From a virus (lineage: Duplodnaviria; Heunggongvirae; Uroviricota; Caudoviricetes): a stretch of DNA of 34,098 nt. Position numbers and translations under genes: made by a program. Below the pieces are notes generated by a model, which had not been told where the DNA came from, did no database searches, and worked only from the letters and a program-made list of their open reading frames with translations. Positions 8,191 through 8,656 of the stretch are shown here, in pieces. Location: the IMG/VR virus record IMGVR_UViG_2531839446_000020. One strand, written 5' to 3'. Numbering within the stretch: the first letter of the stretch is position 1; every line of letters starts with the position of its first letter.

Positions 8191-8221
8191 CATAAACAAC
8201 AAAGCCGCCCAAAAGGCGGCT
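8191..8221 (-). terminator. Intrinsic terminator-like hairpin after the lipoprotein moron, just upstream of J
   Basis: 7-bp stem AGCCGCC / GGCGGCT with a 5-nt loop, followed on the minus strand by TTGTTGTTTAT. Confidence 0.5.
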
Positions 8222-8245
8222 CATGAGTTACGGCAGGATTAACTA

Positions 8246-8584
8246 TTATTTACATGCATTAACACTATCAGCAAAAATTTTTGGCGTTAATGCTGGTACG
8301 CGTTCATAAAGAGTAAAACTACTGCCATTTCCTGCTTTTTTGATATCAAGCACAACATCATACCCACCCATAGCCTGTGGAACTAAAAGGCTTACCCCAT
8401 TCTCAATAGGAAGGGATGTTATAGGTGTTCCATTACCAGCCCATTGTCTGGATATGCAGCCTGACAATTCATCAATATTTTTTAATGAATTACCTTCCAT
8501 TACAGGCTTGCCGGATTTTACGTAATCCAAAGATTTACATCCTGTTAAGGCAATAATCGTGCAGAATAAAATCGTTTTGTTCAT
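8246..8584 (-). CDS. Putative lipoprotein, 112 aa (moron between tail genes I and J)
   Basis: MNKTILFCTIIALTGCKS... has a signal peptide and lipobox (LTGC). The gene is AT-rich and has its own downstream terminator; lambda has no gene between I and J. Confidence 0.6.
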   Translation of the reverse strand: MNKTILFCTIIALTGCKSLDYVKSGKPVMEGNSLKNIDELSGCISRQWAGNGTPITSLPIENGVSLLVPQAMGGYDVVLDIKKAGNGSSFTLYERVPALTPKIFADSVNACK

Positions 8585-8656
8585 ATAGCTAACCAACAGA
8601 ATAATTATCAGTGTTCGATATAAATATTAAATCAGTTAGAACATGAGTAAATAATA

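Follow-up and report, generated by a model that had tools for sequence, protein, structure and literature searches.

The 34,098-nucleotide (nt) DNA stretch of IMG/VR record IMGVR_UViG_2531839446_000020, from a virus of the Caudoviricetes, is referred to here in its entirety as the window. It represents an Escherichia coli prophage, and its lambdoid tail operon contains a small lipoprotein gene between the tail assembly gene I and the tail tip/host specificity gene J. An earlier note on this DNA had described this gene as AT-rich, 112 amino acids (aa) long and endowed with the lipobox LTGC. This description is borne out; the gene lies at 8246..8584 and has a GC content of 37%, compared with 58–60% in the flanks (1.9 kb on each side). 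As judged by sequence comparison, the view that it belongs to a horizontally mobile accessory cassette, located in the tail-tip part of the late operon of lambdoid prophages and encoding a lipoprotein of the PHROG 914 family, is well supported. The gene and its export signal are as follows.

8246..8584, minus strand: lipoprotein coding sequence, 112 aa plus stop codon, ATG at 8584, PHROG 914 family (from the list of open reading frames (ORFs) and the sequence)
8537..8584, minus strand: signal peptide and lipobox, residues 1–16, MNKTILFCTIIALTG followed by C (read from the sequence)

The lipoprotein gene and its family

The ORF list also holds a longer version of 116 aa, which starts from a TTG four codons upstream of the ATG. 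Homologues and the RefSeq annotation begin at the ATG (8584), not at the TTG; in RefSeq relatives, the gene is labelled as a 339-nt hypothetical protein. Two plus-strand ORFs that overlap it, at 8340..8525 and 8425..8556, are without support and were disregarded. The minus-strand ORF represents a genuine gene rather than a chance reading frame, because the exact protein sequence is present on at least 1000 public contigs, belongs to a family with conserved cysteines, and gives a confident AlphaFold2 model.

The match to PHROG 914 (E 7.3e-33) extends over residues 1–112 of the protein and over all of the profile (positions 1–118 of 118); relatives match phrog_914 with E values between 2.8e-25 and 3.9e-15. 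The family is catalogued as one of unknown function, and literature searches by accession, PHROG number and keywords found no paper on it. An exhaustive profile search recovers 125 cluster representatives, nearly all of which are 105–125 aa long and have the lipobox in the same place. Among relatives of 48–62% identity, 31 positions are invariant. In an alignment of 119 members, Cys43 and the lipobox cysteine, Cys16, are found in all 119 and Cys111 in 118. Tandem copies of the PHROG 914 domain are also present in large proteins: the family profile matches P0091 (1047 aa) in five and P0115 (782 aa) in six separate stretches.

Export signals and predicted fold

The N-terminus has the organisation of a lipoprotein signal peptide of the Sec/Lsp type: it begins with a basic n-region, continues with a hydrophobic core and closes with the lipobox L-T-G-C16, which fits the pattern [LVI][ASTVI][GAS]C. 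The mature protein is predicted to start with Cys16 in lipidated form. In the window protein, Lys occupies the +2 position, where the family has Ala, Ser, Lys, Thr, Val, Gly, Gln or Glu; Asp does not occur. According to the Lol sorting rule, lipoproteins with a residue other than Asp at this position go to the outer membrane. Because the +2 residue is not Asp, the putative lipoprotein should be sorted there. The claim that the gene encodes an exported lipoprotein thus gains support from the sequences, both through the strictly conserved lipobox cysteine and through the nature of the +2 residue.

The AlphaFold2 model has a mean predicted local distance difference test (pLDDT) score of 83.7, with values above 85 across most of the mature domain, which comprises about 96 residues. 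It consists of two helices packed on a five-stranded antiparallel sheet. The mature domain has two conserved cysteines, C43 within the first helix and C111 where the last helix ends; a periplasmic disulfide between them is plausible and would probably form. Structural neighbours of the model all have 4–16% sequence identity to the protein, and the predicted fold most resembles that of Francisella Flpp3. As modelled, this is a common small fold that assigns no function.

The I–J junction

The surroundings of the lipoprotein gene comprise the following features.

8657..9304, minus strand: tail assembly gene I, the upstream neighbour (Pfam Lambda_tail_I, E 3.5e-24)
8585..8656, minus strand: leader, 72 nt, AT-rich, between the stop codon of I and the lipoprotein ATG
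8223..8656, no strand assigned: inserted cassette, about 434 bp in place of 18 nt of the lambda spacer (alignment to phage 2G7b and lambda)
8202–8222, minus strand: hairpin with T-rich tail at 8192–8201, upstream of the J ribosome-binding site (terminator-like scan)
4685..8179, minus strand: tail tip/host specificity gene J, the downstream neighbour, start at 8179 (Pfam FNIII-A_GpJ and other J domains)

On the coding strand (8222..8192), the hairpin reads GAGCCGCC-TTTT-GGGCGGCTT followed by TGTTGTTTAT. Its RNA has a folding energy of −21.6 kcal/mol (z = −3.1 relative to shuffled sequences). The gap between the lipoprotein gene and the hairpin is 23 nt, and the T-rich tail stops about 12 nt before the J start codon. 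The earlier note had regarded this structure as a terminator dedicated to the lipoprotein gene, which does not appear to hold at the I–J junction. In lambda (NC_001416, 15445–15504) and in phage 2G7b, both of which are without the lipoprotein gene, the I–J spacer is 60 nt long and contains a homologous hairpin, AAACCGCC-TGCG-GGCGGTTT, with a T-rich tail and then TTTATGGAGCGTGAGGAATG, which is as far from the J start codon as its counterpart in the window. The stems of the window and lambda hairpins differ by a compensatory change. Since the homologous hairpin is present without the gene, it is not dedicated to it; judged by alignment, the structure at 8192..8222 is the native pre-J hairpin and marks the downstream boundary of the cassette. 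The related statement that I is directly followed by J in lambda is correct in so far as no gene lies between the two, and is to be amended in that the 60-nt spacer already holds the hairpin.

The pre-J hairpin with its T-run is also found in phage Fraca and in Klebsiella and Enterobacter prophages. All lambdoid tail operons that were examined have a GC-rich hairpin and T-run just before the start codon of J, whether or not they carry the lipoprotein gene (window 8192–8222; lambda NC_001416 15463–15495; comparison loci L002 7008–7036, L005 7018–7046 and L010 12303–12328). Candidate roles are those of an attenuator, an RNA stabiliser or a recombination joint.

As to the neighbours themselves, gene I of the window is 100% identical to that of the UTME-12 prophage. 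J is split into ORFs of 395 aa (6992..8179) and 761 aa (4685..6970) by five single-base indels, which cluster within about 130 nt (region 6900–7060) at short base runs. In relatives, J is intact and 1131–1160 aa long; the clustered indels look like an assembly error or early decay.

Distribution of the cassette

The whole cassette is found at the I–J junction in 334 of 5426 complete Escherichia coli genomes (about 6%), where the gene is always annotated as ‘hypothetical protein’; 60 IMG/VR loci also carry it. Across hundreds of E. coli genomes, the lipoprotein is 98–100% identical. In a prophage of E. coli DCE7, which is the closest relative of the whole window, J comes straight after I and the lipoprotein gene is missing. 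A megablast search with the 661-bp region against 50,697 phage genomes returned 110 records, which were matched through the I and J flanks only. A scan of species-representative genomes gave one locus only.

The backgrounds in which the gene is found are mosaic. The 98–100% identical lipoprotein is combined with two unrelated tape-measure types, with differing M and I alleles and with at least four J C-terminal types; gene I varies (84–100% identity) while the lipoprotein stays identical. Base composition also sets the gene apart in its phage-borne relatives, which have a GC content of 38–43% as opposed to 44–55% in their flanks, whereas chromosomal relatives are at host GC.

Other positions in lambdoid tail operons

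Homologues at 27–59% identity occupy other slots in lambdoid tail operons, mostly between K and I and in one lineage between T and H, and are always on the strand of the tail genes. The K–I slot is used in Klebsiella, Kluyvera, phage Fraca and metagenomic contigs. In Yersinia, the homologue lies just upstream of I, after an island of 4–5 kb with Arc/Ant/Bro-type genes. The T–H slot, between T and the tape-measure gene, is used in Enterobacter, Citrobacter and Salmonella prophages. Gene I is duplicated in the Pseudomonas phage phiAH14a, and the homologue p33 immediately precedes one of the copies; in hhalign, p33 fits the family profile with a probability of 98.9%, and it is the best structural match in BFVD (TM 0.70). 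Annotated as 93 aa without a signal peptide (L013, 4910–5309 region), p33 begins at about family position 24; the N-terminus that it lacks may be encoded by p34, an ORF of 37 aa directly upstream, as the result of a frameshift or a mis-called start.

The cassettes in the K–I slot (Klebsiella, Fraca, Yersinia) and the T–H slot (Enterobacter) end with a strong hairpin and T7 before the ribosome-binding site of the next gene. The corresponding gene-free junctions have no spacer: K and I abut in an Enterobacter prophage, and T and H overlap in a Klebsiella prophage. In general, the gene and a hairpin thus travel together as a unit; at I–J, the native hairpin serves, or is indistinguishable from an imported one.

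About eight in ten sequence lineages of the family are directly beside gene I, either upstream or downstream. Unrelated lipoprotein genes also occur there, namely phrog_2320 in Fraca (L002, 5648–5994), one for a 148-aa protein in the IMG/VR locus L074 (7409–7855), and phrog_890 genes in phiAH14a (p83; L094, 2439–2861) and in the satellite AH14b (p21). Some of them are in tandem with a PHROG 914 gene, and the tail module of AH14b consists of gene I and the lipoprotein gene only. Either these junctions are simply permissive, or there is a functional link between gene I and the lipoproteins beside it.

A moron in the sense of Juhala and Hendrix is an extra gene unit relative to related genomes. 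Homologous genomes have the present cassette or precisely lack it, and its base composition is deviant. Because it is present or absent at near-identical I–J junctions, deviates in GC content and uses three tail-operon slots, comparison lends good support to its interpretation as a moron, already put forward in the earlier note. Taken as a whole, the reading as an outer-membrane lipoprotein borne by a moron is very probable. The same note had named homology to a structural tail component as a result that would speak against its own interpretation. Such homology was looked for in Pfam, NCBIfam, PADLOC and PHROG searches with the lipoprotein, and none was found; in addition, the gene is absent from lambda and the 110 phage records, its position varies, and its product has a signal peptide. 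Phage tails are assembled in the cytoplasm. The sequence data thus argue against a structural or assembly component of the tail.

Relation to known systems

Small phage lipoproteins in tail-gene regions have been associated with superinfection exclusion, and the earlier note had drawn a parallel to Cor and Llp. The parallel remains no more than an analogy, that of a lipoprotein encoded in the tail region: there is no homology beyond the signal peptide, the predicted fold differs, co-variation with J is lacking, and no promoter was detected. Like the window lipoprotein, Cor (phi80, N15, HK022 and T1; PHROG 1119) is a small phage lipobox lipoprotein encoded in the tail-tip region of siphophages, and is an accessory gene that can be present or absent. 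It differs in size and position (about 77 aa, downstream of J, compared with 112 aa and upstream of J). An hhalign comparison of the family profile with Fraca Cor aligns 30 columns, covering the signal peptide and 12 further residues. The window protein itself has no match to phrog_1119, and its relatives match it only N-terminally, with E about 1e-3. The genome of phage Fraca contains cor (annotated downstream of J) as well as a PHROG 914 gene, so the two are not alternatives to each other.

PHROG 914 proteins, Cor (L002, 11579–11812) and p83 of phiAH14a have a common motif after the lipidated cysteine, approximately C-x(6-9)-[RK/E]-x(2-3)-P-[VI]. It is because of this motif that profile comparisons reach about 12 residues past the signal peptide. 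Its occurrence in three otherwise unrelated families might reflect a shared function in tethering or sorting, or might be due to chance.

T5 Llp (PMC9586334), a lytic conversion lipoprotein, provides a precedent. It resembles the window lipoprotein in being an outer-membrane lipoprotein encoded beside the receptor-binding apparatus of a siphophage. Unlike the window lipoprotein, which is not tied to a J tip type, it is tied to the receptor of its own phage, as a blocker of FhuA. A profile search of Protein Data Bank (PDB) sequences matched T5 Llp (8a60 chain B) over residues 1–19 only, with E 0.78, and gave nothing beyond signal peptides overall; nor is Llp among the top structural matches of the AlphaFold2 model.

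The exclusion moron gp15 of HK97 is an inner-membrane protein and not a lipoprotein. As a moron in a lambdoid tail operon it is nevertheless comparable, and the Enterobacter and Citrobacter relatives of the window gene occupy the same T–H slot. As prophage cargo, gp15 blocks DNA entry (Cumby et al. 2012, J Bacteriol 194:5012, cited in PMC11364771).

The lipoproteins Lpp021 and Lpp010 of the mEpimmI phages exclude phages when expressed from a plasmid, and Lpp010 excludes LamB-dependent phages including lambda (PMC11893012). As here, the genes of both lie within the cluster of structural genes, their carriers being temperate coliphages. In contrast to the window lipoprotein, Lpp010 is tied to phages that use LamB, and Lpp021 to phages that use OmpA; Lpp010 of mEp010 further differs in being 82 aa long and encoded downstream of J on the opposite strand. 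It was rejected as a homologue, as hhalign aligns 16 columns that are all within the signal peptide.

Envelope-directed conversion genes in or next to lambdoid tail genes are also known in lambda (lom, bor) and in Gifsy-2 (lom–sodCI). They belong to other families (the beta-barrel Ail/Lom family, the Bor lipoprotein and Cu/Zn superoxide dismutase) and use other slots; the window has its own lom gene at 4016..4615. In Gifsy-2, lom and sodCI lie between M and L, which shows that tail-tip slots host conversion genes; a location of sodCI between I and J was considered and rejected on the grounds of this position. Tai (tail assembly inhibition) systems, which involve prophage morons and tails, were likewise rejected as a lead, since the paper on them mentions no lipoprotein and the Tai genes lie upstream of the packaging module.

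Possible functions

Precedents for phage lipoproteins that are encoded near tail-tip genes and exclude phages (Cor, Lpp021/Lpp010 and T5 Llp) form the basis for the proposed function. At the periplasmic face of the outer membrane, the lipoprotein would make the envelope refractory to phage, which is the weakest step of the proposal. The block might act at adsorption or during passage of the tail tip or DNA, and might protect either the lysogen or the progeny. Such an anti-phage envelope function is a best guess from analogy and context, and a tentative one; the complete explanation, a mobile moron lipoprotein acting at the envelope against phage, is likewise put forward with reserve, its probability being judged to fall somewhat short of even.

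Several results weigh against this proposal. Pfam, NCBIfam and PADLOC scans of the window protein and the 119 family members gave no family match, and no homology to any protein of tested function was found. The protein is, by sequence, unrelated to Cor, Llp and Lpp010 beyond the signal peptide; it therefore does not belong to any characterised exclusion family. A tblastn search of the 50,697 phage genomes gave no match at E 1e-5, and only matches of 29–31% identity at a relaxed threshold. This points either to rare induction or isolation of the carrier prophages or to their under-sampling among deposited phages. The results on chromosomal homologues, on J and on expression that follow count on the same side, and each of them bears on an alternative explanation.

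Homologues in chromosomal, non-phage contexts are found in Shimwellia blattae, between yidB-like and ecotin genes, and in one other genome; the family therefore has some function that is unrelated to phage. This would suit a lipoprotein that serves host fitness or virulence, through envelope integrity or in the animal host, and has no part in phage defence; it would be a lysogenic-conversion factor comparable to Bor (serum resistance) or Flpp3. The carrier prophage also has the effector genes nleH and cif and a lom gene, and Gifsy-2 keeps sodCI in its tail-tip operon. The likeness to Flpp3, an outer-membrane lipoprotein of Francisella tularensis (DUF3568; PDB 6pny, 2mu4 and 9nlt), is offset by a sequence identity of only 6–9%, by the frequency of small alpha/beta folds and by the absence of a Pfam DUF3568 match for the window lipoprotein. 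The function of Flpp3 is itself poorly defined. Moreover, the nearest enterobacterial and Pseudomonas copies are almost always in tail operons by gene I, which points to phage-related selection. On balance, a role confined to host fitness or virulence appears quite unlikely.

If the envelope proposal is correct, the nature of the target can be narrowed by means of gene J. The last 160 residues of 37 complete J proteins encoded next to the 98–100% identical lipoprotein were compared. They fall into five groups: three full-length types, which are only 40–62% identical, and two smaller groups, with three sequences between them, whose ends are divergent or shortened. The tip type of the window J is that of Stx1a- and Stx2c-converting phages and of phage Ayreon, which are without the lipoprotein; this J domain is present in at least 31 phage records without the lipoprotein gene. 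Thus, the lipoprotein and the J receptor-binding domain assort independently. A co-adapted blocker of the carrier’s own receptor, in the manner of Llp, is not supported, as the identical protein is found with several J receptor-binding domains. The J data may be reconciled with a blocker of one fixed receptor, or with a block at a step that lambdoid tails have in common. Because the identical protein rides with several J domains, the proposed target would be a fixed envelope component or such a common step, and not the receptor of the carrier phage.

This independence from J also fits an explanation in which the lipoprotein is an accessory coupled to gene I, acting, for example, as a periplasmic decoy or blocker of the hydrophobic tip proteins (gpI and the C-terminus of gpH) which incoming lambdoid tails insert into the envelope; ejection and not receptor binding would then be blocked, at a target common to lambdoid tails. 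The adjacency to gene I described above holds even where cargo of 4–5 kb separates K from I, and the other slot, T–H, adjoins the tape-measure gene and is that of HK97 gp15. In translation, gpI of the window has a long hydrophobic C-terminal half. Against this, the adjacency may reflect permissive junctions, given that the unrelated phrog_890 and phrog_2320 lipoproteins use the same ones, and the lipoprotein stays identical next to gene I alleles that vary. Coupling to gene I is considered improbable. A bolder version of it would make PHROG 914 a previously unrecognised class of phage-borne outer-membrane lipoproteins, coupled to gene I across Enterobacteriaceae and Pseudomonas and blocking a post-receptor step, i.e. 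passage or insertion of gpI/gpH. A post-receptor target in the periplasm would explain the indifference to the accompanying J receptor-binding domain; this version is a long shot.

As for expression, the late operon runs from Q (30019..30771) by way of the lysis, head and tail genes as far as J, lom and stf, and the lipoprotein gene points in the same direction as all of it. In lambda, late genes are transcribed in lytic growth by a Q-antiterminated polymerase. Because the lipoprotein gene is co-directional with this transcript, the protein would, by lambda biology, be made at least in lytic growth. A sigma-70 consensus scan of the coding strand of the leader found no promoter, although this is a crude consensus test that cannot exclude one. 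In relatives, promoter counts are not above those in shuffled sequences, and only the Yersinia copy has a match at 9 of 12 positions. There is no clear Shine–Dalgarno sequence in the leader, and an Rfam scan of the region gave sub-threshold chance matches only.

The co-directional position and the lack of a detected promoter would be expected of a ‘lytic conversion’ factor like T5 Llp, made only late, from the late transcript and without a promoter of its own. It would be exported to the outer membrane of the dying cell and would inactivate receptors or debris so that progeny are not wasted; the lysogen would have no phenotype. In Klebsiella, only 32 nt lie between K and the lipoprotein gene, and Q-modified polymerase would read through the downstream hairpins, as established for lambda. 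The precedent is again T5 Llp (PMC9586334). The lack of co-variation with the J receptor-binding domain weighs more heavily here, because protection of progeny requires that the phage’s own receptor be blocked. Very low GC and hairpin boundaries are typical of autonomously expressed morons, and the promoter scan is subject to the caveat already given. A late-only factor is therefore rather unlikely, and action at the envelope against phage, with the reserve expressed above, is retained as the preferred explanation.

A decaying or functionless hitch-hiker ORF might also lack a Shine–Dalgarno sequence in its leader, and the neighbouring J is disrupted in the window. This explanation is very improbable in view of the near-identity of the protein over hundreds of E. 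coli genomes, its intact state in the window, the 31 invariant columns among relatives of 48–62% identity, the cysteines conserved across 119 members and the confidently predicted fold.

Other features of the window

Positions 1–1155 (minus strand) contain an ORF of 384 aa that encodes a Cif domain followed by a CdtA/C domain. Relative to the E. coli DCE7 prophage, the window is without 3,026 bp, which comprise the 5′ part of cdtC, cdtB, cdtA and some remnants. As a result, cif has lost about 10 codons at its end and is joined in frame to the 111 codons with which cdtC finishes. The nleH gene (1379..2269) adjoins this cif–cdtC fusion.

Significance for phages and their hosts

The recurrent presence of lipoprotein genes beside gene I, together with the conserved pre-J hairpin, informs how tail operons accept cargo. 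The lipoprotein is also a cheap and easy-to-test exclusion candidate; PMC11893012 states that exclusion of lambda has not been reported for any lipoprotein of a lambdoid phage. Should it have no phage phenotype, it would be one more uncharacterised moron. If it does exclude phages, it would add a widespread and structurally distinct family to the short list of envelope exclusion factors (Cor, Llp and Lpp021/Lpp010). The range of this family extends from about 6% of complete E. coli genomes to prophages of Klebsiella, Enterobacter, Citrobacter, Salmonella, Yersinia and Pseudomonas, and phage exclusion by its members would matter for predicting the phage susceptibility of clinical strains and for phage therapy.

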